Source: Candidatus Daviesbacteria bacterium RIFCSPLOWO2_01_FULL_39_23 (lineage in GTDB: Bacteria; Patescibacteriota; Microgenomatia; Daviesbacterales; UBA10151). From it: DNA of 64,000 nt. Of the stretch, positions 11,167-63,354 are shown piece after piece. How positions within the stretch are numbered: the stretch's first letter is position 1; each line of letters starts with the position of its first letter. The stretch spans positions 30,130 through 94,129 of the forward strand of contig MFDN01000015.1 of the NCBI GenBank assembly GCA_001776935.1. Reading direction: 5' to 3'. The notes under the pieces were generated by a model, which was not told where the DNA came from, searched no databases, and saw only the letters and a program-made list of their open reading frames with translations. Both the position numbers and the translations under genes were made by a program.

Positions 11167-12014
11167 ATATTAAATACGCTTTTAGCATTTTGGGTAGTTT
11201 GACTGGCTACTTCCTCAAAAGATACTCCTTTTAAATCAGCAATAAGCTCGGCGATTTCTTTTACAGATGAGGGTTCATTTCTTTGTCCGCGTTTGCTCTG
11301 GGGAGCTAAAAACGGCGAATCAGTTTCTAAAACAATCCTGTCCAAAGGCAATAATTTGACAGCTTCTCGCAAGTATTCATTTTTAGGATAGGTAATGTTG
11401 CCTGCAAAAGAAACTGTTAGATTAGTAGTATGTAGTATGTAGCTAGTATTATGGGAGAGACCGGAATAACAGTGTAGAATAGCAGATTGGTCCCCAAGTA
11501 TTTCAAGCGTATCGTCCCAGGCCTCGGAATTTTCGGGATCTTTTGATCGGTCGTCGCGGCAGTGGATTATTAAAGGAAGATTTAATTTTTTGGCCAAGTC
11601 TACCTGAGCTTGTAAGAGTTTTTTTTGTAAAACCTTAACTTCATCAATTGTTATAGATGGTGGAATAAAGCCGGGATTACTTTCAAAAAAATAATCCAGA
11701 CCACATTCTCCTATACCGACAACTTTTTTTGGGTTAGAAAGATAGATCTGTTCTAACTGCTGCGTATCATTTTTAAGAGTTTCATTAGAGATATACTTTG
11801 CTGCCTCATGCGGATGGATAGCTACGGTGGAGTACCCTTCGACTCCGCTCATGTCAAGTTTTTCGCAAATTTGAAGTGCTTCCCGGCTTTTTTCAATGTC
11901 TACTCCGACATTAATAATGGCAGTAATTCCGGCATCTTTAGCGCGTTGTATTACCAGGTCTAAATCGTTTTGGTAACTTTCCCAATATAAATGTGCATGT
12001 GTATCAATTAACAT
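11163..12014 (-). CDS. tatD: TatD-family metal-dependent DNase/hydrolase
   Basis: MLIDTHAHL start and the overall TatD fold. It contains an in-frame segment derived from the gtagtatgtag hairpin repeat (about nt 11418-11456). Confidence 0.85.
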   Translation of the reverse strand: MLIDTHAHLYWESYQNDLDLVIQRAKDAGITAIINVGVDIEKSREALQICEKLDMSGVEGYSTVAIHPHEAAKYISNETLKNDTQQLEQIYLSNPKKVVGIGECGLDYFFESNPGFIPPSITIDEVKVLQKKLLQAQVDLAKKLNLPLIIHCRDDRSKDPENSEAWDDTLEILGDQSAILHCYSGLSHNTSYILHTTNLTVSFAGNITYPKNEYLREAVKLLPLDRIVLETDSPFLAPQSKRGQRNEPSSVKEIAELIADLKGVSFEEVASQTTQNAKSVFNI

Positions 12015-12615
12015 TTTTTAACCCTAAAATTGTAACAAATCTTCCCTCTTTTTGGTTAGTATCTTCTGCCCTTCGGTGAGAAAAATAATTCATGTTTTCA
12101 TAGGTGCATATTTTGGGATTATCCATATTTTCTTTTAGAATGCCGCAATCAATTAATTGTTTTTCTGCTTCTTGCCAGATATTTAACCGATAATGACAGG
12201 GTCCGATAGATGGACCTAATTTTGCAAGCAGGTTTTTGGGATTAGATCCAAAATGTTTTTTCATTTTTTGAATTGCATTTTTAATAATTCCTTTTTGTAA
12301 ACCTTTAGAGCCGGCATGGATCAAGCCTATTGCTTTATTCTGCGGGTCATATAACCCAACAGGAATGCAATCTGCTACTTTTACCATTAATACAAAATTT
12401 GGATTGTTGCTGATAAGAGCATCGCCTTTGGTATTGGGATCCGGGTGTTCTTTGACAACAACTACTTTATTGCTGTGGATTTGCTCCAGCTCTGCAATCT
12501 CGTCATTGCGAACCCACTTTTCAAAAAACTTTTTCCTGTTTTGCAACACTTCTTGTGTGGGTCCAAAACGAAAATCCATATTTCCATCAGAAACTTGTGA
12601 CGAGATAAAAATCAT
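12004..12615 (-). CDS. YfiH/PgeF (Cu-oxidase_4, DUF152) family protein
   Basis: Conserved HSNKVVVV, GDALISN and ADCIPV segments typical of the YfiH/PgeF family. Confidence 0.8.
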   Translation of the reverse strand: MIFISSQVSDGNMDFRFGPTQEVLQNRKKFFEKWVRNDEIAELEQIHSNKVVVVKEHPDPNTKGDALISNNPNFVLMVKVADCIPVGLYDPQNKAIGLIHAGSKGLQKGIIKNAIQKMKKHFGSNPKNLLAKLGPSIGPCHYRLNIWQEAEKQLIDCGILKENMDNPKICTYENMNYFSHRRAEDTNQKEGRFVTILGLKNVN

Positions 12616-14051
12616 AGACGAGGAAAAAGAGGGGGGGCAGATTTAATTCCGACGGAAGTCGGAATAGTCCCACGGTTTATTTCTCCTGAGAATTGTTTTA
12701 ATATTTTCTCTGCAGTTTCGGGTAAAAATGGCTGCAGATTAAAAGCAATAATTTGAATTCTTTTCACCAAATCCTCTAAAACTTGTTTCGCTTTTTCTCC
12801 GGACAGCTCCCAGGGTTTTTTTATATTTATTTCTTTGTCTGTTTCAGTAATATTTTCCCAAATATAGTTTAATGCTTCGTTAAATTTATAAGTATCCAGA
12901 TGTTTAGTCATTTTTGGGTCAAATTCTGTTGGACAGTTTAATACTTCAATATTATTTTGCTCGCACATTTTTGCCACTCTTGATACTAAATTTCCCAAAC
13001 CGTTGGATAAGTGGGCAATATAACTTTCATGTATCCGCTCAGGCGTAACATCGCTGTCTTCAAAAGTGTTTAGCTCATAAGCTATAAAAAATCTGACAGC
13101 CTCGGTACTATATTTTTTAACCAGTTCAAAAGGGTCTATAACATTCCCTAAACTTTTACTCATTTTTTGGCCGGCGTTTGTTACAAAACCATGAATAATA
13201 ATCTGCCTGGAATTAGGTAAACCTGCAGACATTAACATTGCCTGCCACATGGCTGATTGCTGTCTTAGGTTATCTTTGCCAGCAATTTGTATTCCCGGCC
13301 AGTAATCACTAAATTTCTTATCCTCTTCCGGCCATCCAAGGGTAGAAATATAATTTATTAAGGCATCAAACCAAACGTAAAAAACTTGGTCTGGGTCGTT
13401 AGGCACTTCAATGCCCCATGGCAGTTTTTCCTTGAGTCTGGAGATACTAAAATCCTGCAAACCAGAAGAAACAAAATCTTTTATTTCTTTAAGGCGGAAA
13501 CCCGGTACTACAAATTCAGGATTTTTTTCATATAAATCCAAAAGTGATTCCTGATATTTTGACCATTTAAAAAAATAATTTTCCTCCTCTAAAATTTCTA
13601 TTTGCAGGTTAGGGTGAATGGTACATTTACCGTCAGTCAATTCAGAGTCGGTTTTTTCCAGCTCACATCCGATGCAATATTTAATTTTATATATTTTTTT
13701 ATAAATATCACCGTTTTTAAGGCATCTTTTCCAAAATTCTTGAGCAGCTTTTTTGTGATGAGGATTTGATGTTCTGATGAAGTGGGTATAGCTTAAATTG
13801 AGCGCTTCTTTTAGAGCGTCAAATTTAGCAGCATATTCATCTACATAAACTTGCGGATTTTTATTTTGTTCCAAGGCAGCCCGGTAAATTTTTATTCCAT
13901 GCTCATCAGTTCCTGTGTTAAAAATCACTTCGTCCCCGATTAATCTATGATATCTTGCAATAATATCAGCCTGAACTATCTCCATTGCAAAACCCAAATG
14001 GGGCTCTGCATTAACATAAGGGAGAGTTGTGGTAATGTAAAATTTGTTCAT
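12612..14051 (-). CDS. metG: Methionyl-tRNA synthetase
   Basis: HLGF (HIGH-type) and KMSKS motifs; class I synthetase architecture; 479 aa short form. Confidence 0.9.
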   Translation of the reverse strand: MNKFYITTTLPYVNAEPHLGFAMEIVQADIIARYHRLIGDEVIFNTGTDEHGIKIYRAALEQNKNPQVYVDEYAAKFDALKEALNLSYTHFIRTSNPHHKKAAQEFWKRCLKNGDIYKKIYKIKYCIGCELEKTDSELTDGKCTIHPNLQIEILEEENYFFKWSKYQESLLDLYEKNPEFVVPGFRLKEIKDFVSSGLQDFSISRLKEKLPWGIEVPNDPDQVFYVWFDALINYISTLGWPEEDKKFSDYWPGIQIAGKDNLRQQSAMWQAMLMSAGLPNSRQIIIHGFVTNAGQKMSKSLGNVIDPFELVKKYSTEAVRFFIAYELNTFEDSDVTPERIHESYIAHLSNGLGNLVSRVAKMCEQNNIEVLNCPTEFDPKMTKHLDTYKFNEALNYIWENITETDKEINIKKPWELSGEKAKQVLEDLVKRIQIIAFNLQPFLPETAEKILKQFSGEINRGTIPTSVGIKSAPPLFPRL

Positions 14052-14053
14052 AT

Positions 14054-14425
14054 TTACTTTCGTATATGCGTCAGTTTAGGGATTTTTGGTAATTTAGTCA
14101 AATTTCTTTTGGCCTTTTTAAAATAACTCAAAAGCAAGGCAACTGATATGAAAATAAGACTCCCGCTTACCAAGTTTAAAGTATCCAACCCCTTTAATAT
14201 CAAAAGAAAAATTAATCCTGAAGAAATAACAGTGGAGTTTACGAAAGTTTTAAGTAAAAAAATTAAAGTAAAAAGAAGCGCCAAAAAAAGTGGGGCAAAA
14301 AAAAGAATTATTTGGGAAAAATTTGCCTGAGTTAAGGAATCAGGATATGGCATTATGAATACAACTCCTGTAAAAATCCCCCAAAAAATTAAAGGCAGAA
14401 TGATTTTTGAAATAATCTTCAACAT
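14054..14425 (-). CDS. Small membrane protein (123 aa), hypothetical
   Basis: Three or four hydrophobic segments; located directly downstream of metG. Confidence 0.4.
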   Translation of the reverse strand: MLKIISKIILPLIFWGIFTGVVFIMPYPDSLTQANFSQIILFFAPLFLALLFTLIFLLKTFVNSTVISSGLIFLLILKGLDTLNLVSGSLIFISVALLLSYFKKAKRNLTKLPKIPKLTHIRK

Positions 14426-14487
14426 AAATACATTGTAGCTTACAAGACCGGTTACTTCAAAAGTAAAAACAATGTTAAAATAACAAC

Positions 14488-15098: not shown

Positions 15099-15149
15099 TT
15101 AACGACCCAGTTTCACTTTTTGTTCTGAAGTAAGCTATAATCCGTTAAT

Positions 15150-15674: not shown

Positions 15675-15760
15675 AATCTCCTGATACAATAAAAGTAGAA
15701 AAGCCTGGTTATAACTAATCGTTACAGCAACTGATTGTAAGTAATTTATTAATAGCTGGA

Positions 15761-18019
15761 CTATATTCCCACTATTTCAAAAGTGGAGCCGGCGGAATTT
15801 TTAGAAACCTCAATCCTGACCGGAAATTCTTCTTTTAATTCTTCAATGTGGGTGATGACTAAAATTTTTTCAAAGTCATTTTTTATTGTATCTAAAACTT
15901 CTACTAACCTTGCCCTGCCCGGAGCATCTTGCGTACCAAACCCTTCGTCGATTACTAAAAACTGAAGCCTTGCTCCGGCCCTATGGGTGAGTAATTTTGA
16001 TATAGCCAGTCTTATTGCAAAATTAACCCGGAAAGTTTCACCGCCTGAATAAAGTTCATAAGGCCGTTCACCCATTTCATCAGAGATGACAATTTCCAAA
16101 GTCTCAATAGTGCCGTATCCTTTTTCTCCTTCAGACAGCAGTACTTTGGTCTTGGTTTCTTTTTGGGTTTCAAGTTTTATTTTCATCCGTCCTTCAGTTA
16201 GTTTTTCCAACAACCTGTTTGCTTCATCTTCTATCTCAGGAATTGCATTTTCAATAATCATGGCCTGAATGCCTTTTTTACCAAAAGCCAAAGTCAGCTC
16301 GTCAAAAATTTGCTTGCTTTCTGTTAATTTTGTTTTTTCCAATAACTTGGTTTCATTTAATTTTATAAGTTGCTCGGACCTTGATACCAATTGTTTCGCT
16401 TCCCCGACTTTACCGGAAAGCTCTAAAGCTTTTTGAGATAGATCCTGTTTGGTTTGTTCCTCCGCTTTTAATTCATTTTGTATTTTTATCAAATGATTTT
16501 CATAAGTTTCCAGATTTTCCAATTCTTTTTGGTCTTTTAAAATTTGATTCTCTTTAGACTGATAGATTTTTTGTAAATCAGATAAAGCTTCCTGGTGGGT
16601 TTTTACTCCGGTAAGTGCCTGTTGCAGTTTAGTAAATTTTTCTGTAAAGCCTGAAAGCTTTTCAAGAATTTGAGTAATTTCAAAATAATTTTTAGTTTCT
16701 TCCTCAAGTATTTTGATGGCTCTTTCTTTTTCCTGAGCTATTTCAGATTCGGGTAATACAATCTCTTTATATTTTTTAATCGTTGACAGTAAAGTTGTTA
16801 TTTCCAATTCGTTTTTTCCGATTTGTTTTAAATTTATGCTTATTATTTCTTTGTTTTTTTCTTCATTGATCGGTTGCTTGCAGGTGGGGCAAATATCTTT
16901 TTTATTTTGCAAAGCACTGTTTTGAATTTGTAATTGTTCATTTCGCGTCTGCAGTTGTTTAGCCTGAAGCTCGATTTTTGATATAGCTTCTTGCCTTTTA
17001 TTTTCCCTCTCGGTTATAATTTTTTGAATATCTACCAGCTCATCTTTTACGATAATCAGTTGGCTTCTTTTTTCATCCAGTTTTTTCTTATCTTCCTGTA
17101 AGGTTAAAAGCTTTTGGTAATTTTTTTCAATGTCTTCTTTTTGGTCTAAGATAGTCTGAAATTCAGACTGGGCTTTTTGGTTTAATTCTATTTTTGTTTT
17201 TATATCAGCCAGTTCTATTTGAACTGAATCGATTTGTTTTTTCTTTTCCTCCAAAGATTTAATTTGTAAACTTATGCTTTCCTGTTTCTCGTTAATCTCT
17301 TTAATCAGGATTTCAACTTCCCTTAACTTGCTTTCAACTTTTTTGGATTCTTCCTGAGCTAAAGTTAGCGTTTTTTCCCTTTCTTCTTTTTGTGATAACT
17401 CGGTTTCAATCTCCAGGAGTTGGTATTCTAAAAGAGTCAGTTTTGTTTGAGCTTCTTTGGATTTTTCTTTAGCCTTTTCTTCCAGTTGGTCATAATGATC
17501 CAGTCCTAAGATATCTGCCAGTATTTTCTTCCGCTCAGTAGGTCCTTTAGTGGTAAATTCATCAGCATGTCCCTGACGAAGATAGGCAGAATTAGTAAAA
17601 GTTTCAAAAGTTAAATGAAGGGTGTCTATAATTTTTTGTTGGGTTGCTTTGATTGTTCCTTCGGTCAGATTATGCCCTGAGTGAACGGAGTGAGTCGAAG
17701 GGTTACTGCTCCAAAACTCAAGGTTTGTTGAACCTCCGCCTTTTTTAGACCGTTGCCGCTTTACTGTAAAAATATGTCCGTCAAGCTCAAAAGCAAATTC
17801 TACATTCATCTTTTCAGCTCCTAAATGGATTAGATCATCTGAAGAATCCCCGGCCCTGGATGTACCCCAAATGCACCAGGTTATGGAATCAAGCAAAGAG
17901 GATTTGCCGGCTCCGTTTAGACCGGAAATCGCTGCCAGTTTAAATTTTGTAAAGTCTAGCTCCCGAGGACTTTCGCCGTAGGAAGTAAAGTTTGATAATT
18001 TAAGTTTAACCGGTATCAT
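15761..18019 (-). CDS. sbcC: SbcC/Rad50-family DNA repair ATPase (SMC-like). The N-terminal extension to 18091 is probably spurious and runs into a repeat element.
   Basis: MIPVKLKLSNFTSY...GLNGAGKSSLLDSI Walker A; long coiled coil; CPTCKQP zinc hook; C-terminal signature and D-loop (LVIDEGFG). Confidence 0.85.
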   Translation of the reverse strand: MIPVKLKLSNFTSYGESPRELDFTKFKLAAISGLNGAGKSSLLDSITWCIWGTSRAGDSSDDLIHLGAEKMNVEFAFELDGHIFTVKRQRSKKGGGSTNLEFWSSNPSTHSVHSGHNLTEGTIKATQQKIIDTLHLTFETFTNSAYLRQGHADEFTTKGPTERKKILADILGLDHYDQLEEKAKEKSKEAQTKLTLLEYQLLEIETELSQKEEREKTLTLAQEESKKVESKLREVEILIKEINEKQESISLQIKSLEEKKKQIDSVQIELADIKTKIELNQKAQSEFQTILDQKEDIEKNYQKLLTLQEDKKKLDEKRSQLIIVKDELVDIQKIITERENKRQEAISKIELQAKQLQTRNEQLQIQNSALQNKKDICPTCKQPINEEKNKEIISINLKQIGKNELEITTLLSTIKKYKEIVLPESEIAQEKERAIKILEEETKNYFEITQILEKLSGFTEKFTKLQQALTGVKTHQEALSDLQKIYQSKENQILKDQKELENLETYENHLIKIQNELKAEEQTKQDLSQKALELSGKVGEAKQLVSRSEQLIKLNETKLLEKTKLTESKQIFDELTLAFGKKGIQAMIIENAIPEIEDEANRLLEKLTEGRMKIKLETQKETKTKVLLSEGEKGYGTIETLEIVISDEMGERPYELYSGGETFRVNFAIRLAISKLLTHRAGARLQFLVIDEGFGTQDAPGRARLVEVLDTIKNDFEKILVITHIEELKEEFPVRIEVSKNSAGSTFEIVGI

Positions 18020-34542: not shown

Positions 34543-35778
34543 TTGAAACCTCTAAAGCTTCAAAAAAGCCGGAAAGATTATTCTCTTAAGTTAAAAAGAG
34601 TGAAAAATACCACAAGAAAACTTATACCTTTGCTTGTAATCATTGGAATTTTAATATCCATTGCTTTTTTCTTAACAACTTTATCAGGCACCAGTTCCTA
34701 CGTAAGTCATATAATTTCGGGAACATCGCTTAAATCAGGCGAGGGAAGAATAAATATCTTATTACTCGGCATTGCCGGCGGCAGTCATGGCGGAGCCAGT
34801 CTGACAGACACCATTATGGTAGCCTCGTATAATCTGAAGACCAGTCAGATTGATTTAATTTCTCTCCCGCGGGATTTATGGCTGCCTTCTTTGCAAAGCA
34901 AAGCTAATGCAGTGTATCAAAAAGGTTTAGTGCAAGGTAATGGATTGGGTCTTTCCAAGGTGGTTATAGGCAATATTTTAGGAATACCGATTCATTATGC
35001 GCTTCTTGTGGATTTTCGTGGGTTTGTTGCTGCAATAGATGCTTTGGGCGGTATAGATGTGCAGGTGGAAAAATCTTTCGATGATTACCAGTATCCAATT
35101 GAAGGTAAAGAAAATGATATGTGCGGACTTGAGGAAAAGGAAATGGATTTTAATGAAAATGATGCAAAGAATTTAAATATTGAGCCGGGTAAAAGATTAG
35201 TGTTAATTTTGCAGGACGGCAAAATAGCCACAGATGCCGCGCAGGAGGATAGGGGGGTTAAGTATTTCAATTGCAGATACGAGCATATTAAGTTCGAGAA
35301 AGGCCAAATGCATATGAGCGGAGCAGTTGCATTAAGTTTTGTCCGTTCAAGGCATGGAACAAATGGGGAAGGGTCGGATTTTGCCCGCTCAAAAAGACAA
35401 CAAAAGGTGATAGAAGCGGTTAAAAGTAAAATACTCTCTTTGGAGACTTTAACCAGTCCCCAAAAAGTGGGCGATTTAATTTCCGTTCTTGGTAAAAGTA
35501 TTGATACTGATGTAAAAGTTAAAGATACTTTAGAATCTTATAAATTATTACGTAAAATAGAGCAGGTGCACACTTTTGTTCTGGATGACTCTCTAAGAAG
35601 CGGTTTGCCTGACGGCAGAAAAACGCTTTTTGTTAATCCGCCCAGGAGCAGTTATGGAGGTGCTTATGTTTTGGTATCGCAGGATGATGACTTTTCTATT
35701 GTGCAGGAATATGTTAGAAAGATTCTCAGAGGAGAAATAACTGAGTATGAAGCCACTTCTGCTGCACGGCCCCGCTAA
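34543..35778 (+). CDS. LytR-CpsA-Psr (LCP) family cell-envelope phosphotransferase
   Basis: TM anchor then INILLLGIAGGSHGGASLTDTIMVASYN...LISLPRDLW, the hallmark LCP region. Confidence 0.8.
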   Translation: MKPLKLQKSRKDYSLKLKRVKNTTRKLIPLLVIIGILISIAFFLTTLSGTSSYVSHIISGTSLKSGEGRINILLLGIAGGSHGGASLTDTIMVASYNLKTSQIDLISLPRDLWLPSLQSKANAVYQKGLVQGNGLGLSKVVIGNILGIPIHYALLVDFRGFVAAIDALGGIDVQVEKSFDDYQYPIEGKENDMCGLEEKEMDFNENDAKNLNIEPGKRLVLILQDGKIATDAAQEDRGVKYFNCRYEHIKFEKGQMHMSGAVALSFVRSRHGTNGEGSDFARSKRQQKVIEAVKSKILSLETLTSPQKVGDLISVLGKSIDTDVKVKDTLESYKLLRKIEQVHTFVLDDSLRSGLPDGRKTLFVNPPRSSYGGAYVLVSQDDDFSIVQEYVRKILRGEITEYEATSAARPR

Positions 35779-36397
35779 AGAAGCTTCAAGAAAAAAGCTA
35801 TTAGAAATAAAAGAGAAATTTACCCAAAATAATGTGGTCGTTTTCGAGGAGGGTACTGATTTACAAGTCATTTTAGGTGGTGTGGCTACTCAGTCGCTGT
35901 TTTCTGATGAACGACTTATTGTTTTGGAGAATCCCCACGAGGATGTTATTTTAAACTTATCGCTTATCGCTTATTGCTTATCGCTTGCAATATGGTTTGA
36001 TCATGAGGTGAATGTAAAGAAGTTCCCTGGTTTTGAAGTGATGTTTTTCCCGGAAGGCAAAGAGGTTTCAATCTTCCCCTTTTTAGATTTATTGGCAGCC
36101 AAAGACAAAAAAGCCTTTTTAGAACTTCAGAAACTAAAAGACGGAGGATTTGATATTTACTATTTTTTGACCATGACCTTTTATCTTCTAAGAAATTTGG
36201 TGGCTACTCCCAAAAGAGCTCCTGACTTTGTCCGCACTAAACTACAAAGACAAAGAAAAAACTTTACCGAAGCTAAAATAACACAACTTTATAAAGATCT
36301 TCTGGAAATTGACTTTAAAATCAAATCCGGTTTGATGGAAATTCCTCAGGCAGAATTTTTATTAATTAATAGATTCCTTGAGCACCCAATTCTTTAA
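35747..36397 (+). CDS. Hypothetical protein, possibly DNA polymerase III delta-subunit-like (HolA N-terminal-like); contains a 7-bp x4 tandem repeat
   Basis: LLHGPAKEASRKKLLEI... weakly resembles clamp-loader delta N-termini. Overlaps the LCP gene by 32 bp. Confidence 0.35.
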   Translation: MKPLLLHGPAKEASRKKLLEIKEKFTQNNVVVFEEGTDLQVILGGVATQSLFSDERLIVLENPHEDVILNLSLIAYCLSLAIWFDHEVNVKKFPGFEVMFFPEGKEVSIFPFLDLLAAKDKKAFLELQKLKDGGFDIYYFLTMTFYLLRNLVATPKRAPDFVRTKLQRQRKNFTEAKITQLYKDLLEIDFKIKSGLMEIPQAEFLLINRFLEHPIL

Positions 36398-38720: not shown

Positions 38721-38735
38721 GTACCTATTATACTA

Positions 38736-38760
38736 GGGTTTAGGGTTTAGGGTGTAGGGG
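38736..38760. repeat. Telomere-like G-tract tandem repeat (TAGGGTT x3 plus GGGG) that fits the G-quadruplex motif G3N4G3N4G3N4G4
   Basis: tagggtttagggtttagggtgtagggg sits in the 60-bp AT-rich spacer between the PilN-like start and the upstream gene's stop. Confidence 0.6.
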
Positions 38761-45817: not shown

Positions 45818-46465
45818 ATGTCAAATAAAATAAAGGCGGTAATTTTTGATATGGATGGTTTGATGATTGATACAGAACCGTTACATCTTTTAGCTTTTAA
45901 CGAAGTTTTTAAAAAATATGAAAAATTTTTATCTGCTGAAGAAAATACCAAAAGATATGTGGGAGTGTCGGACAAAGATGCCATAACAGATATGGTTATC
46001 AGATTCCATTTGCCTCTTTCCTCAAATGAACTGGCTTCGGCTAAACAAACAGAATATAAGAAATTAATACAGGAACAGTTAGTGCCTTTGCCGGGACTGA
46101 TTGGATTGTTGAAAAATTTACAAGATAACGGTTATAAAACCGCCATTGCTTCCGGTTCCACTAAAGAGGAGATAGAAATGGTTATAAAAAGGTTAGGGAT
46201 TGCTCCTTATATAGAAATCTATATTTCAGCTGACCAGGTGCAAAAAGGCAAACCGGCTCCGGATATATTTTTAAAAGCCGCAGAAAAATTAGGTGTTAAA
46301 CCAAATGAATGTTTGGTGCTGGAAGATGCGCCTAAAGGAGTACAGGCAGCCAAATCAGCGGGGATGATTTGTTTTGCAATTCCCAGTCTGCAAACTCAAG
46401 GGCAAGATTTTAGTCTGGCAGACAAAGTCTTAAATAATTTATCCCAGGTTTTTCAAATTATCTAA
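45818..46465 (+). CDS. HAD-IA hydrolase (beta-phosphoglucomutase-like)
   Basis: HAD motifs: I (FDMDGLMIDTE), II (ASGS), III (K...) and IV (LEDAPKGV). Confidence 0.8.
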   Translation: MSNKIKAVIFDMDGLMIDTEPLHLLAFNEVFKKYEKFLSAEENTKRYVGVSDKDAITDMVIRFHLPLSSNELASAKQTEYKKLIQEQLVPLPGLIGLLKNLQDNGYKTAIASGSTKEEIEMVIKRLGIAPYIEIYISADQVQKGKPAPDIFLKAAEKLGVKPNECLVLEDAPKGVQAAKSAGMICFAIPSLQTQGQDFSLADKVLNNLSQVFQII

Positions 46466-46496
46466 CTTCTATCTTCCATCATCTATCGTCCAGCTT

Positions 46497-49330: not shown

Positions 49331-49894
49331 ATGAGTAAAAAACAGGACGAAAGCCAAAATATTAATGTGGAAGAGTTTGAAAAACTGCAAACAGAGTTTA
49401 ATAATTTGCAAACTTTAACAACTCAACTGGAAGGGCAATTAAAAAGAGCAGTAGCTGACTATCATAATTTGGAAAAAAGAGTTGCAGAAGGACGGTCTGA
49501 ATTGACAAGATGGGGAACCAGTGCATTATTAACGCGGATTTTGCCTGTTTTAGATCATTTGGAAAAGGTGGTCGACTTTGGTCGGCCAGCCTTGAGCGAG
49601 CGAAGCGAGTCGAAGGACTGGTTTAAGGGAGTAGAAATGGCGGTAAAGGAACTTACAGGGGTTTTGCAATCCGAAGGCCTGGAACAAATTGCAGCAGATG
49701 GACAGTTTGACCCCAATATGCATGAGGCTCTTGACACAAGGGAGGGTGAGGATAATAAAATATTAGAGGTTGTTAAAAAGGGGTATACTTTAAACGGAAA
49801 AGTCTTAAGACCAGCTGGGGTAGTAGTTGGTAGAAAGCAAGAATCAAGCAATGAGAATCAAGAATTAAGGAAGGAGAAAGAAACTAGTCTCTAG
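49331..49894 (+). CDS. grpE: Nucleotide exchange factor GrpE
   Basis: Coiled-coil N-terminus, then ...ILPVLDHLEK and a C-terminal beta domain; position between hrcA and dnaK. Confidence 0.8.
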   Translation: MSKKQDESQNINVEEFEKLQTEFNNLQTLTTQLEGQLKRAVADYHNLEKRVAEGRSELTRWGTSALLTRILPVLDHLEKVVDFGRPALSERSESKDWFKGVEMAVKELTGVLQSEGLEQIAADGQFDPNMHEALDTREGEDNKILEVVKKGYTLNGKVLRPAGVVVGRKQESSNENQELRKEKETSL

Positions 49895-49920
49895 ACTCTA
49901 GCGACTAGTCACTAAACAAT

Positions 49921-51882
49921 ATGGCTAAAATTGTAGGAATAGATTTAGGAACAACTAATAGCTGTGTGGCAGTCATGGAAGGCGGAAAACCAAAAGTAAT
50001 CCATTCTGCTGAAGGGGAAAATATTATCCCCTCTGTTGTTAATCCCTTAAAAAATGTGGTCGGCCGCGTTGCCAAACGTCAGGCAATTGTTAACCCCAAA
50101 GAAACAATTTTTTCTATCAAAAGACTGATGGGTCGCAAGTTTAAAGACCCGGAGGTGCAAAGAGATATTAAATGGCTTCCATACACCATCAAAGAAGGAC
50201 GCGAAGGGATGGCAGTTGTGGAAGTGGAGGGTCATGAATACACCCCGCAGGAAATTTCTGCTCAGATTTTACAAAAAATAAAAGCAGATGCAGAATCCTA
50301 TTTAGGAGAAAAAGTCACTGATGTGGTAATTACTGTGCCGGCTTACTTTGATGATGCCCAAAGGCAGGCCACCAAACAGGCAGGAGAGATTGCCGGGTTA
50401 AATGTCCAAAGAATTATTAATGAGCCGACTGCTGCAGCTTTGGCATATGGTTTGGATAAATCCCACGCCCACACCATTGCTGTTTATGATCTGGGAGGCG
50501 GAACCTTTGATATTTCCATTTTGGAGCTTGGAGACGGGGTAATTGAGGTAAAATCCACTAACGGCGATACCCACTTGGGCGGGGATGATTTTGATCAGGT
50601 TATTTTAGACTTTCTGGCAGAGGAGTTTAAAAAAGAACAGGGTATTGATCTAAAAGGCGACCGGCAGGCTTTGCAAAGGTTACGTGATGCAGCGGAAAAA
50701 GCCAAAATTGAATTGTCCTCTACTCAGGAAGCGTCAATTTCTATTCCATTTGTAACTGCAGACTCTTCCGGACCAAAGCATCTGGAGATGAGGCTGTCCC
50801 GGGCAAAACTTGAGGCTATGGTTAAGCCTTTGATTGATAAAACCTTTGAAGCGGTAAAGGCTGCCTTAAAAGATGCTAAACTGGAAGCTTCCAAAATTGA
50901 TGAGGTAGTTTTGGTAGGAGGAATGACAAGGATGCCTTCGGTACAAAAGGCTGTCCAGGATTTCTTTGGCAAAGAACCACACAAAGGCATAAACCCGGAT
51001 GAGGTAGTAGCAGTGGGCGCAGCAATTCAGGGAGGAGTTTTAGGCGGGGAAGTTAAAGATGTTTTGCTTTTGGACGTAACACCTTTAACTTTAGGCATTG
51101 AAACTTTGGGAGGAGTTAGAACCCCTCTTATTTCCAGAAATACCACAATTCCCTCTTCTAAATCAGAAGTTTTCTCAACTGCTGCTGATAACCAAACTTC
51201 GGTGGAAATCAATGTCTTGCAGGGGGAGAGGGAAATGGCTGCGGATAATAAATCCTTAGGTAAATTTATCCTTGATGGGATTCCGCCTTCGCCCCGGGGA
51301 GCGCCGCAGGTAGAGGTGACTTTTGACATTGATGCCAATGGAATTTTAAATGTGACAGCGCATGATAAAGCCACCGGCAAAAAACAAAATATTACCATCA
51401 CCGGTTCCACAGGACTTTCAAAAGATGAAGTAGAAAAGATGACTAAGGAAGCTGAGGCTCATGCTGAAGAAGACAGGAAGAAGAAAGAAGAAGTGGAAAT
51501 CAGGAATCAGGCAGATACTTTGGTCTTTACAGCGGAAAGAACTTTAAAAGATGCCGGAGATAAGGTAGATCCTCAGATAAGAACAGACGTAGAGCAAAAG
51601 CTAAATGATCTAAAAGGCGTTATCCAGACAGCTTCTCCTGAGGATCTGAAGCCTAAGATGGAAGCACTATCAGAAGTTTTGCAAAAAGTGGGAGCTGCTA
51701 TGTATCAACAACAGGGTCAGCAAGGTCCGCAAGCAGCGGGGGAGCAGTCTGCCGGCGAGCAACCTGTCGGTGATGAACAGCCAAAAGAAGAAGCTCCTAA
51801 AACAGAGGACGCGTCATCTGAGACTGGCGCGAAAGAGGAAGCTGTAGAAGGTGAAGTGGTGGAGGAAGAAAAGAAAGACTAG
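49921..51882 (+). CDS. dnaK: Molecular chaperone DnaK (Hsp70)
   Basis: [17 protein letters not shown] and [10 protein letters not shown] signatures; acidic C-terminal tail. Confidence 0.95.
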
Positions 51883-52025
51883 TAGTTAGAGTCTAGAGTT
51901 AAGAGTTTGGAATGCCTCGGGCAACCGGGGCTTTTTTAATCTGAAGATGTACAATGTATAATGAGCAATCTATATGGCTACAAAAAGAGATTTAGATCGA
52001 AGATCGCAAGATTTTTTACTAATAT

Positions 52026-52982: not shown

Positions 52983-53053
52983 CTTAATTTTAAAAGTTGA
53001 CTTCAATTTGGGAAAGATTTAGAATACAGATGTTAATAATCAAGGGACCTGAA

Positions 53054-53080: not shown

Positions 53081-53188
53081 GCTAAAGCTTAAAAATGATC
53101 AAGTACCAAATAACAAGATACAAACAAAATTTAAATTTGTTTGGAAACTTGTATTTTGAAATTTGATTATTACAACCGAAGGGAGTTT

Positions 53189-54481
53189 ATGGCACAAGCT
53201 AGAACAGAATTTGCAGCAGCGTTAAATCAAATCGCCTCTGAAAAAGGGGTTGACTCTGAGGTGGTTTTAGATGCCATCAGGTTTGCCGCCTTGGCTGCGT
53301 ATAAAAAGGATTTGATGCTTCGTAATGAACCAGTTCCTGAAGACTTTGAGAAATTTATTTCAAAAGTGGACCCAGTAACCGGGGAAATATCCATTTATGA
53401 CGGGGATAAAAATGTTACTCCTCCGGGATTTGCCCGGATTGCTGCCTCCATTGCCAAACAGGTGATAATGCAAAGGCTGAATGAAGCAGAAAGAGGCACA
53501 ATTTTGGCAGAATATGAAGGTAAGGTTGGAACTGTTATTTCAGGCAGCATACAAAGACAGGAAGGAAATACTTTTTTTATAGATTTAGGCAGGGCAGAAG
53601 GCATTTTGCCGCCATCAGAACAGGTTCATACGGAAGGTTATCATCAAAATCAGAGATTAAAGTTTTTGGTTAAAGAAATCCGTGAAGGCGGCAGGGGTGG
53701 AGCTGAGATTGTTGTTTCCAGATCAGATCCGAATTTGGTGAAAGCGCTTTTTGCTCTTGAAGTGCCGGAAATTCAATCAGGAGCCTGTGATATTAAAGTT
53801 ATCGCAAGAGAGGCAGGCTCAAGGACTAAAATTGCCGCTTTTTCTTCACAAGACGGGGTTGATCCGGTTGGATCTTTAGTAGGGCAAAAAGGAGTCAGGG
53901 TGCAGGCTGTGATAAGTGAATTAGGCGAAGAAAAGATTGATATTATAAGTTATTCTGACGATCCGGCCAGATTTATCGCAGCTGCTCTGTCTCCTGCAAA
54001 AGATATTCAAGTTAGTTTAAATGAAAAAGATAAAATAGCCACAGTTACAGTTCCGCAGAATCAGCTTTCTCTGGCAATCGGAAAAGGCGGACAAAATGTC
54101 CGGCTTGCCGCTAAATTAACCGGCTGGAAGATTGATATTGAAGGAGCAGAAGAGCCGGAAGTTGCTAAAGAAGAAGCCAGGCCGGAGAGCGAAGCCGTAA
54201 AGGAAGATGTAGCAGCAAAGACTGGTGAGAAAAAAGAAAAAGCACAAAGTGAACCCGTTCCCGCAGAGGACGCAAAAATAACAGAAAATAAAGAGCAAGC
54301 GAAAGAGGCTATAGAAGAAGAGGTTTCTGAAGCTGAGGAAAATGCAACAACTGCTAAAGAGAAAATAGCAGCAGAGGAAGCAGGGGAAGTTTTAGAAAAA
54401 GCAGTTGATGAAGAAAACCCCCAGCAGGAAAAACAGCAACTGGAAGAAGCAATTGGAGAATCAGGTACGGGTAGTCAGTAG
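53189..54481 (+). CDS. nusA: Transcription termination/antitermination factor NusA with acidic C-terminal extension. The ORF extends to 53141.
   Basis: N-terminal domain, S1 and two KH domains (IGKGGQNV). Start MAQART preferred. Confidence 0.85.
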   Translation: MAQARTEFAAALNQIASEKGVDSEVVLDAIRFAALAAYKKDLMLRNEPVPEDFEKFISKVDPVTGEISIYDGDKNVTPPGFARIAASIAKQVIMQRLNEAERGTILAEYEGKVGTVISGSIQRQEGNTFFIDLGRAEGILPPSEQVHTEGYHQNQRLKFLVKEIREGGRGGAEIVVSRSDPNLVKALFALEVPEIQSGACDIKVIAREAGSRTKIAAFSSQDGVDPVGSLVGQKGVRVQAVISELGEEKIDIISYSDDPARFIAAALSPAKDIQVSLNEKDKIATVTVPQNQLSLAIGKGGQNVRLAAKLTGWKIDIEGAEEPEVAKEEARPESEAVKEDVAAKTGEKKEKAQSEPVPAEDAKITENKEQAKEAIEEEVSEAEENATTAKEKIAAEEAGEVLEKAVDEENPQQEKQQLEEAIGESGTGSQ

Positions 54482-54566
54482 TATGTATTAAGTATTATGT
54501 ATTAAGGGTATGAAAACATTGAATTTATTATTTCCCATAATACTAACTGCTTGATACTTAATACTT
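54478..54566. repeat. Hairpin repeat family B copy (imperfect inverted repeat rich in gtattaagta / tattatggg)
   Basis: Left arm agtatgtattaagtattatgtattaaggg pairs with right arm cccataatactaactgcttgatacttaatac. Shares ttgatacttaatac with the copy at 63277-63354. Confidence 0.7.
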
Positions 54567-54597: not shown

Positions 54598-56046
54598 ATG
54601 AGTGAAATTAACAGATCACCTATCGTAACAATCCTTGGCCATGTTGATCATGGCAAAACTACGCTTTTGGATTTTATCCGTAAATCTTCTGTGGCTGCAA
54701 AAGAACACGGAGGAATTACTCAACATATTGGTGCATATCAAATTCCCCACAACTCCAATCTAATCACCTTTATTGATACTCCCGGGCATGCGGCTTTTGA
54801 AAAAATGCGCTCCCGGGGGGCCAAAGTGGCAGATATTGCTATCCTAGTTGTGGCTGTTGATGATGGAATTATGCCTCAAACTGAGGAAGCTATAAAGCAT
54901 ATTAAAGGGGCAAAAGTGCCAATTATTGTGGCTGTTAATAAGGTGGATCTGCCGGGTGTTAATACCAAAGTTCAGCTTGATAAGATAAAAAAACAATTGT
55001 CTGACAGGGAAATTATGCCGGAAGAATATGGGGGAGATGTGCCTGTGGTGCCGCTTTCTGCAAAAACAGGTGAAGGCGTAGACAAGCTTCTGGAGATGAT
55101 TTTGCTGGTTGCAGAAATGAACGAATTAAAGGGCGATCCTGCTTTGCCTGCCGCCGGCGTAGTGATTGAATCTAATTTGGATAAATTTAAGGGGCCTGTG
55201 GCCAGCATCTTAATAAGAAACGGAACTCTCAAAAAAGGAGATCAAATAACAATAGGCGGAGTAAAAAGTAAAGTCAGGGGTATGTTTGATTCCAATGGTA
55301 AATCTGTGGATTCTGCTGGCCCATCTGTTCCTGTAGAAGTTCTTGGACTGGAGGCTGTGCCGCAAGTTGGGGCAGTATTGGGAGAGCTTGCAGAAGTAAA
55401 AGAAGCTGAAGCGATTCAGTCTTTGGTGGACAGGCTTAAGCAAGGGGATGCAAAATCCCTAAAAGTGGTTATTAAAGCTGATAAGCAGGGGTCTTTGGAG
55501 GCAATTGAAGCATCTTTGGATAAATTTAATGTTGAGAGAAAAATAGTGACTGTAATTTCTAGCGGTACCGGAGATATAGGAGAGGAGAATATTAAACTTG
55601 CTGCAACTGTGGGAGCTATCGTAATCGGTTTTAACGTTAAAATCTCCTCTTCTGCGCAAAAACTTGCAGAAAACGAGCATGTTTTAATAAGAAATTACAA
55701 TATTATTTATGAACTTTTGGAAGATGTGGAAGAGGTTGTAAATACTTTACTTGAGGTTGGGCAACTGGAAGAAGTTTTAGGCAAAGCCAATATTATTGCA
55801 GAGTTTCCGCACGGTAAAAATGAAAAGATTGCCGGTTGCAGAATGATAGAGGGAATTATTGCTAAAGGACAAAAAATCAGGGTTGTGCGGGAAGGGCAAA
55901 AAATTGGCGAAACAAAGCTTAAATCATTGAAAAAAGTCAAAGAAGAAGTAAATAAAGTGGAAAAGGGTAATGACTGCGGGATGCTTTTTGATCCTCCGGT
56001 TGATTTTGCAATCGGCGATACCGTCGAATCCTTCAGGGTAATTTAA
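54598..56046 (+). CDS. infB: Translation initiation factor IF-2, short form lacking the N-terminal region
   Basis: G domain starts at residue about 8 (ILGHVDHGKTTLLD); DTPGH, NKVD; beta-barrel II and C-terminal domains present. Confidence 0.85.
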   Translation: MSEINRSPIVTILGHVDHGKTTLLDFIRKSSVAAKEHGGITQHIGAYQIPHNSNLITFIDTPGHAAFEKMRSRGAKVADIAILVVAVDDGIMPQTEEAIKHIKGAKVPIIVAVNKVDLPGVNTKVQLDKIKKQLSDREIMPEEYGGDVPVVPLSAKTGEGVDKLLEMILLVAEMNELKGDPALPAAGVVIESNLDKFKGPVASILIRNGTLKKGDQITIGGVKSKVRGMFDSNGKSVDSAGPSVPVEVLGLEAVPQVGAVLGELAEVKEAEAIQSLVDRLKQGDAKSLKVVIKADKQGSLEAIEASLDKFNVERKIVTVISSGTGDIGEENIKLAATVGAIVIGFNVKISSSAQKLAENEHVLIRNYNIIYELLEDVEEVVNTLLEVGQLEEVLGKANIIAEFPHGKNEKIAGCRMIEGIIAKGQKIRVVREGQKIGETKLKSLKKVKEEVNKVEKGNDCGMLFDPPVDFAIGDTVESFRVI

Positions 56047-56143
56047 GCACACTTGATTTTTATAGACGTGGACTGTAATAGTCTACGCAAAGCCTTGACT
56101 ATTATGGGCTAGTGGTGGTAGAATTGGCCTGTTTCTAAAATAT

Positions 56144-57169: not shown

Positions 57170-57203
57170 CAAACGTCCTATAATATGTTAAAATCACAAA
57201 AAT

Positions 57204-57314: not shown

Positions 57315-57322
57315 ATCCTGAC

Positions 57323-60849: not shown

Positions 60850-61017
60850 TTAATTTTTGCTTCTTCTTTATTAGGTAGTATAATTCTTATAATTGTTATT
60901 CTCATATAGCCTCAACTTAATCATTTCATGATGCGATCGCATATCATCATTATAAAGACAAAACTTGATACGATCGTGTACATTTTTGAGCAAGCTTGGT
61001 TATGCTATGATTAGGTT

Positions 61018-61572
61018 ATGCAAAAAGGGTTTATCAGCCAGCCGATAATTTTTGTTCTGCTTGGTATTTTGGTAATTTTACTGATTGCCGGCGGTGTTTA
61101 TTATTTTATCAGTTCATCTAAATTAAAGCCTCCCTCTTCTCAGGCTCCCCAAGCCTGTACTAATGAGGCTATGGTTTGTCCTGATGGATCAGCTGTAGGT
61201 AGAGTTGGTCCAAACTGTGAATTTGCCCCTTGCCCCGCAGGAAAGACAACAGACAAAATCATAACTCCTTCTAATCCTCCTGATTCCTCTAATCCTTCTA
61301 CAACTCAAGATTATCGGCTAGGTGGGTCGTTTACTGAAAAGGCAACTGAGAAAGAGATAGGATCAATAAGCAGCAGATTTGGATCTGATGTTTCTTCTGT
61401 ATCCTTACTGGAAAGTTTCCCCCTGCAGTTTCAAATCACCAGCCCTTCCCAAACCTCCTGTGAGAAAGTAAGAAAAGCCCTGGCTGGTTTAAAATTTATC
61501 CAAAGTGTTGGTGATTGCCAAAAGGTTGAATCAGGTAACTCTGATCCTAACCAATCCGTAATAAGCAATTAA
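61018..61572 (+). CDS. Secreted/membrane-anchored hypothetical protein (184 aa); N-terminus similar to the next gene
   Basis: MQKGF...LLGILVILLIAGGVYYF signal anchor, Cys-rich and Pro/Ser-rich regions. Confidence 0.5.
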   Translation: MQKGFISQPIIFVLLGILVILLIAGGVYYFISSSKLKPPSSQAPQACTNEAMVCPDGSAVGRVGPNCEFAPCPAGKTTDKIITPSNPPDSSNPSTTQDYRLGGSFTEKATEKEIGSISSRFGSDVSSVSLLESFPLQFQITSPSQTSCEKVRKALAGLKFIQSVGDCQKVESGNSDPNQSVISN

Positions 61573-61577
61573 CTTAA

Positions 61578-62192
61578 ATGAACCAAAAAGGTTTTGTGCT
61601 TTTATACATCCTAATAGGAATTTTGATTCTGATAGGAATAGCTGGTGGAGCATATTATTTATGGGCGCAAGAATACCGTCGAACGCATCCTATTGGTCCA
61701 CTACCAATAGTGGTACCTGAAAATATACCACTATCTAGGAATATTGATGAAACAGCCACCTGGAAAACATACACCAATACAGAATATGGCTTTTCAATCA
61801 AATATCCAGACTTTATTACATATAAAGAAAAACTCTTTAATGACGTGACTTTTTATTACAAAATTGATGATGAAGATATTCCGGAAAATAAATACGATTT
61901 TCCAAGCTATTTTACCAAAGGACTAGGGATTCTATTTAGAACAGGACCAGCTGAACAAGCAGCTAGTTCAGAATTACCAAACAGACCTCAGGAAAAAGTT
62001 CAAATTAACAATAGTGAGGGGGTAAGAATCAAAGATTCACTGTTTAATTATTATCTGTCTTCTAAGGGTAATGACAAATACTCTATAAGGTTAGTTTATC
62101 AAGGTCGTACTGTATACCAAACAAAAGATGAAATAGAAAAAAGATTACGTATTTATCAACAAATTCTTTCTACCTTTAAATTTCTTCCTTAA
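61578..62192 (+). CDS. Secreted protein of the local paralogous family (MNQKGF anchor; WKTYTNTEYGFSIKYP ... ILSTFKFLP)
   Basis: Shares N-terminal anchor, domain-start and C-terminal motifs with the genes at 38781-39860 and 25386-26081. Confidence 0.55.
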   Translation: MNQKGFVLLYILIGILILIGIAGGAYYLWAQEYRRTHPIGPLPIVVPENIPLSRNIDETATWKTYTNTEYGFSIKYPDFITYKEKLFNDVTFYYKIDDEDIPENKYDFPSYFTKGLGILFRTGPAEQAASSELPNRPQEKVQINNSEGVRIKDSLFNYYLSSKGNDKYSIRLVYQGRTVYQTKDEIEKRLRIYQQILSTFKFLP

Positions 62193-62240
62193 AGTATCCT
62201 CTTGGGAAACGATAGTGTTTGAGGTAGAATATACAGTGAA

Positions 62241-63278
62241 ATGGATTCTGCCCGGGCTGTTTTAGAAGAATTAAAAATAAAGGTTTCACAAGCTAGTCTC
62301 CCAAAAGAAGTAGAAGAAAAACTTTTAAATCTTTTAAAATTTACAGCTAGCGGTGCTGAAGCAGAAAGCCTGATTGGTTATGTGAATTTTGTAATTTCTT
62401 TACCCTTTGGGAAAATGTCTCAGGATATTTTGGATATAAACAGAGCTAAGCAAATTTTAGATAAAAATCATTATGGTCTGCAGTCTGTAAAAGACCGGAT
62501 TTTAGAATACTTGGCAGTAATGATTTTAAACAAAGGAAGGCCTGAGCGATCCGGCGACAGCCTGAGAGTCGAAGGACATGCGCCGATTTTGGCATTTATC
62601 GGGCTTGTGGGAACCGGTAAAACTTCTTTGGCGTATTCCATAGCAGAATCTTTGGGAAGACCTTTGGTAAGAATTCCTTTTGGAGGATTGGGAGATCCCT
62701 CTGCTTTGCGCGGGTCATCCCGTATCCGTCCTGATGCAGAACCCGGACAGATTATAAAAGCTGTACAATCTACTAAAGTTTCAAATCCTGTTATACTGTT
62801 GGATGAGATAGACAGGGCGGCAGTTGAGCATAGGGTAGATATTATGGGAGTTTTGGTGGAGCTTTTAGATCCGGCCCAAAATCAGGCTTTTACAGACCAT
62901 TACCTGGATTTTCCTTATGATTTATCGCAGGTTTTATTTATCGCAACCGCCAACAATACCGGAAATATTGCAACAGCAGTCTTAGATCGGCTCGAACCAA
63001 TAGTTATGCCCTCGTATTCAGACGAGGAGAAATTGATTATTGGTAAGAACTATTTATTACCTAAAGCCATTTCCGAAGCAGGCATCAATGGAGATTTATT
63101 AAGTATTGATGAAGCTGTGTGGCCGCAGATACTCAGACCCTTAGGATTTGATAGCGGCATCCGGTCTTTATCCCGAAGTTTGCAATCAATTTGCAGAAAA
63201 ATTGCACGAAAACAAGTTGAAGGAGGAACGGGACCATTTAGGATAACAGGAGATAATTTGCGAGAATACCTTAGTTAG
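62241..63278 (+). CDS. Lon-derived AAA+ ATPase module without N-terminal LAN domain or S16 protease domain
   Basis: Collinear with Lon from ...HYGLQSVKDRILEYLAV... through Walker A (GLVGTGKTS), Walker B (ILLDEID), LDPAQNQAFTDHYLD and DRLEPIVMPSYSDEEK, then stops where the protease domain would begin. The sensor region GHRRTY is replaced by GSSRIR. Confidence 0.65.
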   Translation: MDSARAVLEELKIKVSQASLPKEVEEKLLNLLKFTASGAEAESLIGYVNFVISLPFGKMSQDILDINRAKQILDKNHYGLQSVKDRILEYLAVMILNKGRPERSGDSLRVEGHAPILAFIGLVGTGKTSLAYSIAESLGRPLVRIPFGGLGDPSALRGSSRIRPDAEPGQIIKAVQSTKVSNPVILLDEIDRAAVEHRVDIMGVLVELLDPAQNQAFTDHYLDFPYDLSQVLFIATANNTGNIATAVLDRLEPIVMPSYSDEEKLIIGKNYLLPKAISEAGINGDLLSIDEAVWPQILRPLGFDSGIRSLSRSLQSICRKIARKQVEGGTGPFRITGDNLREYLS

Positions 63279-63354
63279 TATTAAGTAGTATGTAGTAAGT
63301 ATTATGGGTAGAAATCATTAAAATCCTTAATACCTAATACTTGATACTTAATAC
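63277..63354. repeat. Hairpin repeat family B copy
   Basis: agtattaagtagtatgtagtaagtattatggg pairs with ccttaatacctaatacttgatacttaatac. Lies immediately after the Lon-like stop codon. Confidence 0.7.

Follow-up and report, generated by a model that had tools for sequence, protein, structure and literature searches.

Heptamer-built hairpins at two gene junctions of a Daviesbacteria genome, and a related repeat arm within the coding sequence of tatD

What are the AT-rich imperfect hairpins that begin inside the stop codons of two genes in a 64,000-nucleotide stretch of a Candidatus Daviesbacteria genome (contig MFDN01000015.1; the whole stretch is referred to below as the window), and why should a segment resembling one of their arms be read as protein in the tatD gene of the same stretch? 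The host belongs to the Microgenomates group of Patescibacteria, its TatD protein matches ACD_38C00002G0005 of the Rifle aquifer at every residue, and the window is gene-dense, with a G+C content of about 38%. A sequence-only reading had placed inverted repeats directly after the stop codons of nusA and of a Lon-like gene, and that is where they are: E1 (54477-54564) at the nusA-infB junction and E2 (63272-63354) at the junction between the gene of an AAA+ ATPase with a Lon lid domain (AAA) and the RNase J gene (rnj). The two are homologous and each is ~85 nt long. On balance we favour the view that E1, E2 and a third copy, E3, form a small dispersed family of palindromic elements of ~85-95 bp that serves as a transcribed intercistronic barrier or processing site, and that one arm of such an element has become fixed in tatD.

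The shared arm sequences that had first drawn attention are real; rather than being arbitrary inverted repeats, however, they consist of heptamers in tandem. All four arms have a period of 7 (Tandem Repeats Finder); the unit of the 5' side is a degenerate GTAKTAW, 7 nt long and tandemly repeated (GTATTAA, GTAGTAT and GTATTAT are among its forms), and the 3' side is built from its complement. The left arm of E1 (54477-54508, plus strand, as are all parts of E1 and E2) reads AGTAGTA TGTATTA AGTATTA TGTATTA AGGG, with the nusA stop codon (TAG, 54479-54481) inside it and a GGG clamp at 54506-54508; the loop (54509-54533) contains the conserved TATGAAAAC, and the right arm (54534-54564) is CCCATAATACTAACTGCTTGATACTTAATAC, with the core CCCATAATAC. 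Set out in heptamer phase, the element becomes TAG-TATG TATTAAG TATTATG TATTAAG GG, loop, CCC ATAATAC TAACTGC TTGATAC TTAATAC. E2 is built likewise, with units of GTAGTAT and GTAGTAA: its left arm (63272-63308) is TAGTTAG TATTAAG TAGTATG TAGTAAG TATTATG GG, with the AAA stop codon (TAG, 63276-63278) inside; its loop (63309-63324), TAGAAATCATTAAAAT, is similar both to that of E1 and to the 5' end of rnj in relatives; and its right arm (63325-63354), CCTTAATAC CTAATAC TTGATAC TTAATAC, ends 9 nt before the rnj start codon (63364). In both elements the stop codon of the preceding gene is the exact place where the array begins, and a clamp of GGG/CCC (or GG/CC), one mismatch included, closes the loop.

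E1 and E2 share 23 nt of left arm with one mismatch (AGTAGTATGTA[T/G]TAAGTATTATG), an exact block of 15 nt in the right arm (CTTGATACTTAATAC) and related loops (GGGTA(T)GAAA(A/T)CATT); the core sequence of the family is GTATTAAGG-loop-CCCATAATAC. At up to one mismatch, GTATTAAGTAT occurs 10 times in the window, nine of these within E1 or E2, against a mean of 1.3 in shuffled windows, none of which (0/100) reaches 10. Structure prediction bears out the hairpins as well, with RNA folds of -26.1 kcal/mol for E1 (z = -2.7) and -21.0 kcal/mol for E2 (z = -2.4) relative to dinucleotide shuffles. Since two independent assemblies have the same sequence for E1 and E2, the elements are no assembly artefact. 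Rfam has no match at gathering threshold anywhere in the window and, for E1 and E2 at E values up to 10, only chance-level RsaOG and mir-251, far under their cut-offs; a scan for tRNA and tmRNA found none.

Some further candidate signals were set aside. The consensus that RNAalifold computes from a mixed E1/E2 alignment is slipped by heptamer units (5 compensatory pairs of 17) and is not used as evidence here. HIP1, and with it a possible cyanobacterial origin, was dropped, the single GCGATCGC being the number expected by chance. The near-match ACTATTATGGG at 56098, with one mismatch to the arm motif, is no copy of the repeat: it is part of a strong promoter-like site 3' of infB (56095-56124, TTGACT-18-TAGAAT with TG). 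Within E1 itself, the ATG at 54510, in the loop, would open a possible mini open reading frame (ORF) of 14 codons (54510-54554) that encodes MKTLNLLFPIILTA ahead of its stop codon.

Are E1 and E2 terminators, as had been suggested for them? Rho-independent termination or attenuation at gene ends would suit hairpins that begin at stop codons, and E1 is followed by UUUCU; moreover, the short tandemly repeated repetitive (STRR) hairpins of cyanobacteria have been proposed to pause or terminate transcription (PMC2670836). The setting argues otherwise. nusA (53141-54481, plus strand) precedes E1 and infB (54598-56046, plus strand) follows it; the AAA gene (62241-63278, plus strand) precedes E2. A consensus scan finds promoter-like sites 5' of nusA (52997-53025) and 5' of the AAA gene (62202-62230), and none between nusA and infB or between E2 and rnj. 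Since such sites stand only 5' of nusA and of the AAA gene, E1 and E2 would be operon-internal, and the overlap of AAA and rnj in most relatives implies that these two genes are co-transcribed. Judged by consensus scans, then, both elements lie inside operons, unlike the terminators that the genome uses elsewhere, and neither stands at the end of a transcription unit, to go by the same scans and by the gene overlap in relatives. The essential genes infB and rnj come 33 and 9 nt 3' of the hairpins, with no promoter-like site in between. The stems are AT-rich and are not followed by a U-tract (the 3' tails are CTTTCTCGG and AAAATATTT), so that the GC-rich stem and U-run of an intrinsic terminator are both lacking and E1 and E2 are no ordinary terminators. 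The terminator scan reports neither of them, and does report a canonical GC-rich stem with a T-run 3' of dnaK (51914-51931). Termination is therefore an improbable role.

What happens at these junctions in related genomes? A metagenome scan with IF2 yielded 80 relatives at 60-86% identity. Six of them (L198, L203, L169, L178, L186 and L187; 65-84% IF2 identity) have E1-type hairpins between nusA and infB, with the core ATGTATTAAGG..TATGAAA..CCCATAATAC; the right-arm core CCCATAATAC is kept in five of these six positional orthologues of E1 and differs by a single base in the sixth (L187). Between the E1-core genomes, four-fold degenerate sites in infB have an identity of 0.27-0.40, against 0.28 for random sequence; with synonymous sites at or near the random level, the conserved core is no mere leftover of common ancestry. 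Other relatives have hairpins made from different heptamers (GATTTAA, CAAAGTT) or a GC-richer stem at this place, a hairpin recurring there with at least four unrelated arm sequences, and many have only a spacer of 20-30 nt that still starts with a stop codon and then TATGAAA. At the AAA-rnj junction the genes overlap (ATGA) or lie no more than 10 nt apart in most relatives, and heptamer hairpins are found only in the window, in L198, in L132 and in a few others. Comparing filled with empty sites at this junction discloses no clear target duplication, and no insertion sequence (IS) was seen in the ~83 kb of this genome that were surveyed (the window and 18.6 kb beyond its ends).

The copies within a genome also change together. 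In the window E1 and E2 have CTTGATACTTAATAC in common; in L198 their counterparts E1' and E2' have GTAGTTAGTAGTATG and CTTGCTAC..CAGCTAC in common; and two copies in one genome are more alike than positional counterparts in different genomes. Such sharing of blocks within genomes is, on comparison of these sequences, concerted evolution.

Several other features of these spacers deserve mention in their own right. In ~40 of 66 nusA-infB spacers (L125-L204) the stop codon, a T and an ATG are kept (TAATATG or TAGTATG), usually with R-A-A next. The conserved ATG of E1-type hairpins lies in the loop, with AAGG before it, and opens an ORF of 9-14 codons that runs into the right arm; in relatives with short spacers the corresponding ORF would stop at a TGA that lies just within infB. 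The conserved stop-T-ATG after nusA could be a relay for translational coupling. In relatives (L198 1782-1823, L166 760-797, L128 3831-3872) the spacer between hrcA and grpE is filled by solo left-arm arrays of GTAGnnn units that close with GTATTATGGG, the ATG of GTATTATGGG being the grpE start codon; the hrcA-grpE gap of the window is 3 nt. At the AAA-rnj junction of L132 the loop of the hairpin (17688-17755) resembles the reverse complement of the E2 loop at 10 of 13 nt, and both resemble the rnj 5' end, a likeness that hints at inversion through arm recombination, or else at chance in AT-rich sequence.

Is the family confined to these two junctions? An nhmmer profile made from E1- and E2-type sequences and run on the 18.6 kb that flank the window found a third full copy, E3 (L225 7545-7636), 1.8 kb upstream of the window start. 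The repeat family proposed by the sequence-only reading is accordingly real, and the objection that the genome might hold no other copies falls away. E3 has AGTATTATGTATTAA and TTCCCATAATAC in common with E1 and an RNA fold of z = -3.3. It lies within a conserved ORF of 300 amino acids (aa; L225 6898-7800) and is translated in frame (..EDVVSSEYYVLMEKTGKSRNSHNTKYIIHNTILD..). In orthologues of this ORF, which encodes a conserved protein of unknown function, the E3 stretch is a hypervariable linker: some have the same hairpin peptide, some have the right-arm peptide alone, and in others there are peptides resembling translations of other palindromes. The ~83 kb surveyed thus hold three full copies and one coding half-copy, the one in tatD. 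The linker (alignment columns ~225-290) looks to be a hotspot, with examples such as VVSSKYYV..NSHNTKYIIHNT, IKNNELRIKHKKHNSLFLL and SLRG..RRSNL..RLPRS..SLAMT.

The tatD gene (TatD_DNase, PF01026; 11163-12014, minus strand) contains, at 11423-11455 on its coding strand, the codons TCC CAT AAT ACT AGC TAC ATA CTA CAT ACT ACT AAT for residues S187-N198, which encode SHNTSYILHTTN in frame (the SHTTNYILQTTN segment). This is a heptamer array of the right-arm type; seen from the plus strand, it is a left arm with GGG after it. That a partial arm lies here, in frame and on the strand opposite to E1 and E2, had been noticed before, and the likeness withstands controls: the local alignment score of the tatD string is 24 against the left arm of E2 and 21.5 against E1, and the controls reach at most 10.5 in other windows and 13 in 20 Markov-simulated windows. 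Against the right arm of E3 it is identical at 29 of 36 positions, ungapped and in the same frame (SHNTSYILHTTN compared with SHNTKYIIHNT).

Could such codons have come to resemble a repeat arm by chance? Low-complexity runs of T, N, Y, I and L codons might do so. The peptide is kept in all close orthologues and hence is no insertion, which suits coincidence, and synonymous conservation in the segment (40 of 67 identical codons, about 0.51 in the rest of the gene) is not significantly raised, so that an excess of it was abandoned as an argument; an early impression from one pair of sequences (9 of 12 codons conserved) had failed to hold. Nevertheless, coincidence seems to us very improbable. 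Besides the alignment score and the agreement with E3 in frame and sequence, there is the periodicity: in the tatD DNA of eight orthologues the antisense strand reads GTAGTnn four times and then GGG, ACTAC recurring each 7 nt as the other face of that array, and in several orthologues CTAC/ACTAC occupies four consecutive 7-nt phases; in 937 kb of Daviesbacteria DNA, only 41 arrays repeat a 4-mer in at least four successive 7-nt phases. The segment uses the rare codons TAC, ATA and CTA, with a joint codon probability, given the peptide, of 1e-7, and it is missing from all TatD proteins outside the clade.

How recent is this segment? Twenty-one TatD orthologues at 61-78% identity have the consensus SGLSHTTNYILQTTNLxVSFAAN, orthologues have the segment down to about 60% identity, and in a search of 1.8 billion representative proteins it is limited to Daviesbacteria-like clusters. 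In ~90 TatD hits at no more than 53% identity (among the best 150 hits, those with locatable flanking strands) the same place is taken by a canonical amphipathic helix of 14 aa (for example, SLEEAKKFLDLGFY). Orthologue comparison thus agrees with the suspicion that the segment is lineage-specific and sits where TatD proteins usually have a helix. AlphaFold makes residues 187-194 a helix and 199-203 a strand (pLDDT 83-89); lying between the HCYSG and SFAG strands, the segment fills the structural slot of the canonical helix, which it replaces at nearly the same length (15 vs 14 aa). Capture of a repeat, as the sequence-only reading had it, thus holds for the derivation, with its 7-nt period and its match to E3, and fails for a recent fusion, since a consensus peptide in all close orthologues rules out an insertion. 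We conclude from these alignments that an arm of such a repeat was probably domesticated in an ancestor of the Daviesbacteria, a long time ago, and that it now forms a TatD helix. The segment has no local hairpin around it (z = +1.35 and -0.65). A Thr-to-Asn change specific to the TatD of the window re-forms the core CCCATAATAC of the family, perhaps through later gene conversion, which is speculation.

Other in-frame arrays are to be seen in these genes. In relatives, the variable loop of tatD that follows IHPHE has a GTAACAA-type heptamer array in frame (L124 10210-10243) or short in-frame palindromes (L205 and L208). In the window, a second coding heptamer array, CTTATCG x4.4 (35956-35986), lies in frame in a holA-like ORF (35747-36397; DNA polymerase III delta-like) and encodes LSLIAYCLSLAI.

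How far beyond the Daviesbacteria does this kind of hairpin extend? The pattern GTATTAAGTA-N40-70-TACTTAATAC, scanned in one genome per species, matched at least 119 stretches; nearly all of the matches listed are from Bacteroidota and Patescibacteria, and their arms are again heptamer arrays. This link to a wider class, like the heptamer build itself, had escaped the description of the family that was our point of departure, correct as it was about the family. Among the matches listed, 69 are in tandem (co-directional) context, 16 are convergent, 10 divergent and four inside ORFs; flanking units in 240 arms of related hairpins keep the 7-nt register, and all seven unit positions vary to a similar extent. 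No homologues of nusA, infB, AAA, rnj, hrcA, grpE, dnaK or tatD were found beside the listed Bacteroidota and Patescibacteria hairpins, which must therefore occupy other junctions. Some of the genomes listed hold true dispersed families with conserved loops. Polarity is fixed: in additional hairpins that the search pattern had not selected, GTATTAA arrays stand 5' without exception, and TTAATAC arrays 3'. In viral contigs, the polarity test gave 2 matches vs 13, none of them a heptamer hairpin; they are chance matches or homologous phage genes and say nothing on polarity. Two sets look like dispersed families: a Saprospirales metagenome-assembled genome has 10 copies in both orientations with conserved interiors (L015, L016, L043, L044, L064, L067, L079, L084, L086 and L119), and several Bacteroides species have the core CCATGCGGA..GCTACGG (L036, L037, L047, L056, L059, L066 and L107).

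Such regularity raises the question of whether the elements work as double-stranded DNA, as sites for a protein (for partition, for nucleoid structure, or a recombinase) that reads inverted 7-bp iterons. The spacing would suit this, three units making two helical turns, as would the fixed polarity and the equal folding of the two strands (see below). Against it, the units of relatives differ widely at one and the same site (GTATTAA, GATTTAA, CAAAGTT, GC-rich), the seven unit positions vary similarly, copies survive within coding sequence, and no candidate protein was found. We consider this explanation improbable, too.

A neutral or selfish origin is a serious rival. The hairpins would then be products of 7-nt slippage and palindrome recombination (or MITE-like, that is, akin to miniature inverted-repeat transposable elements), tolerated and with no function as RNA. 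This would account for homogenisation within genomes, for in-frame copies in coding linkers alongside unrelated palindromes and for a loop that may have been inverted in L132 relative to the window (10/13 nt). Several observations weigh against an RNA-level role in the same way. The hairpin is dispensable, since it is missing at the E2 site of most relatives, where AAA and rnj overlap, and since many have just the 20-30-nt spacer at the E1 site. Among the matches listed, the 69 tandem-context hairpins of other phyla show no difference between sense and antisense folding (34 vs 34), a symmetry as compatible with an element that works as DNA or is neutral as with one that works as RNA. What is conserved in the E1 core might be what a propagation or conversion process requires, and no local function. 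A function of E1 and E2 at the RNA level is, after all, what we infer; and the ~83 kb disclose no target-site duplication, transposase or RAYT (the transposase type linked to repetitive extragenic palindromes), nor is there a transposase among the eight window ORFs run against Pfam. On the other side, the E1 core has survived in lineages that agree at synonymous sites about as little as random sequences do, the nusA-infB hairpin has come back with at least four unrelated arm sequences, and the hairpins persist in a genome that is very compact. Folding of the sense strand is more stable than that of the antisense strand in 18 of 25 Daviesbacteria spacers (Wilcoxon p = 0.011, which overstates independence because these spacers are phylogenetically related), a modest sign of RNA-level selection. 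We judge the neutral explanation possible, if rather unlikely.

How might an intercistronic barrier or processing site of this kind arise and be kept? Comparisons suggest that arms would grow and shrink by whole heptamers, as in slipped-strand events, and that copies in one genome would be homogenised through gene conversion or re-seeding. They would persist only at permissive sites, which is to say at junctions of co-transcribed genes, starting in the upstream stop codon, and in in-frame linkers or surface segments of proteins. Copies at junctions would be transcribed within polycistronic mRNA and form a long AU-rich stem-loop, which might act as the barrier or processing site by shielding the upstream cistron from 3' exonucleases, by offering a target to an RNase III-type enzyme or by uncoupling translation. 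A putative role of E1 and E2 as mRNA stabilisers, which had been the other original suggestion, is plausible. In tatD, an arm would have been fixed in the Daviesbacteria ancestor, encoding the helix between the HCYSG and SFAG strands.

A broader proposal can be made tentatively: that heptamer hairpins are a single self-renewing class of the Patescibacteria and Bacteroidota, born at stop/start junctions (units such as TAGTATG join a stop to a start codon), spreading and homogenising, and repeatedly supplying segments of protein, with the TatD helix as a fixed example and E3 and the tatD loops as ongoing ones. Junction copies could also be start/stop relays that tune translational coupling. Were the proposal to hold, protein innovation in ultra-small genomes would have a measurable source in a simple repeat process. 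The coding copies indicate in any case that ribosomes can read through such repeats and that an enzyme can take one up as a permanent structural part, the TatD segment being a concrete and datable domestication of a repeat in a streamlined genome. For annotation, the elements account for odd low-complexity peptides (SHNTKYIIHNT) and variable linkers in these uncultured bacteria, and they mark operon junctions at which mRNA processing may occur.

The window has other heptamer arrays. dnaK is flanked by two that are mutually reverse-complementary: CTAGTCT CTAGACT CTAGCGA CTAGTCA (49884-49914), which overlaps the grpE stop codon, and TAGTTAG AGTCTAG AGTTAAG (51880-51907), which follows the dnaK stop codon and precedes the canonical terminator (51914-51931); with TAG in every unit, these arrays provide stops in all three frames. 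A G-rich, telomere-like array of TAGGGTT x3.7 (38734-38759) lies in the 60 nt that separate two genes of the minus strand, and a degenerate array of TCTATCT-like heptamers (46461-46487) starts at the stop codon of the ORF at 45818-46465.

To what known elements, finally, are E1-E3 to be compared? A literature search found no published description of these hairpins, the nearest being the STRR hairpins of cyanobacteria and the TAACTGA repeats. The repetitive extragenic palindromes (REP, BIME, REPIN) of Proteobacteria are 20-40 nt long and rich in G+C, number hundreds of copies and are linked to RAYT; they carry a conserved GTAG and are classically regarded as mRNA stabilisers. E1-E3 resemble them as dispersed imperfect palindromes at gene 3' ends or between cistrons with a family consensus within the genome, and GTAG recurs in the left arms of E2 and E3. 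They differ in being ~85-95 nt long, AT-rich and 7-nt periodic, with three copies and no RAYT seen in 83 kb, and E1 and E2 are not short GC-rich palindromes of 20-40 nt. MITEs, too, are short, non-coding and dispersed, with inverted termini and sometimes with in-frame fusions; for E1-E3, neither a target-site duplication nor a parent IS was identified in the ~83 kb, and changes of arm length in whole 7-nt units point to slippage rather than transposition.

Rickettsia palindromic elements, of ~100-150 bp, often lie in frame in unrelated coding genes and are translated (PMC10969869). E3 (in the ORF at L225 6898-7800) and the tatD half-element are in-frame palindromic sequences of this kind and are likewise read within proteins. 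The phylum is another one, however, kinship in sequence is not to be expected, the Rickettsia arms are not heptamer arrays, and the E1-E3 family is also found at intercistronic junctions. In Beggiatoaceae, cyanobacteria and some Bacteroidetes, TAACTGA heptamers form intergenic direct repeats (MacGregor 2015, PMC4679880). Like the elements described here, they are stop-containing heptamer arrays at junctions, sometimes overlapping the end of the upstream ORF or lying inside ORFs, with a patchy distribution across phyla that includes the Bacteroidetes. In contrast, nearly all of them are direct repeats just 5' of start codons (1 inverted/170), and the arrays of E1-E3 are inverted pairs.

Among the closest parallels are the STRR sequences, whose units are CCCCAAT and others; Vioque reportedly found in 1997 that STRR arrays also extend an RNase P RNA helix. 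Their heptamer hairpins in heterocystous cyanobacteria, such as the one between hupS and hupL, are of unknown function, with transcript stability or translational coupling proposed (PMC2670836). E1 and E2 share with them the tandem 7-bp units, the inverted arrays able to form an intergenic hairpin, the location between co-transcribed genes and the same functional proposals. They depart from them in their units (GTAKTAW rather than a canonical STRR unit) and in their host (Daviesbacteria rather than a cyanobacterium), and the E1-E3 family has in addition a GGG/CCC-clamped core and a loop common to its copies, together with in-frame coding copies. Heptamer hairpins have so far been described mainly in cyanobacteria; the Patescibacteria and many Bacteroidota add much material for comparison, and the Daviesbacteria offer positional orthologues, concerted evolution and a conserved core with which to follow such elements.

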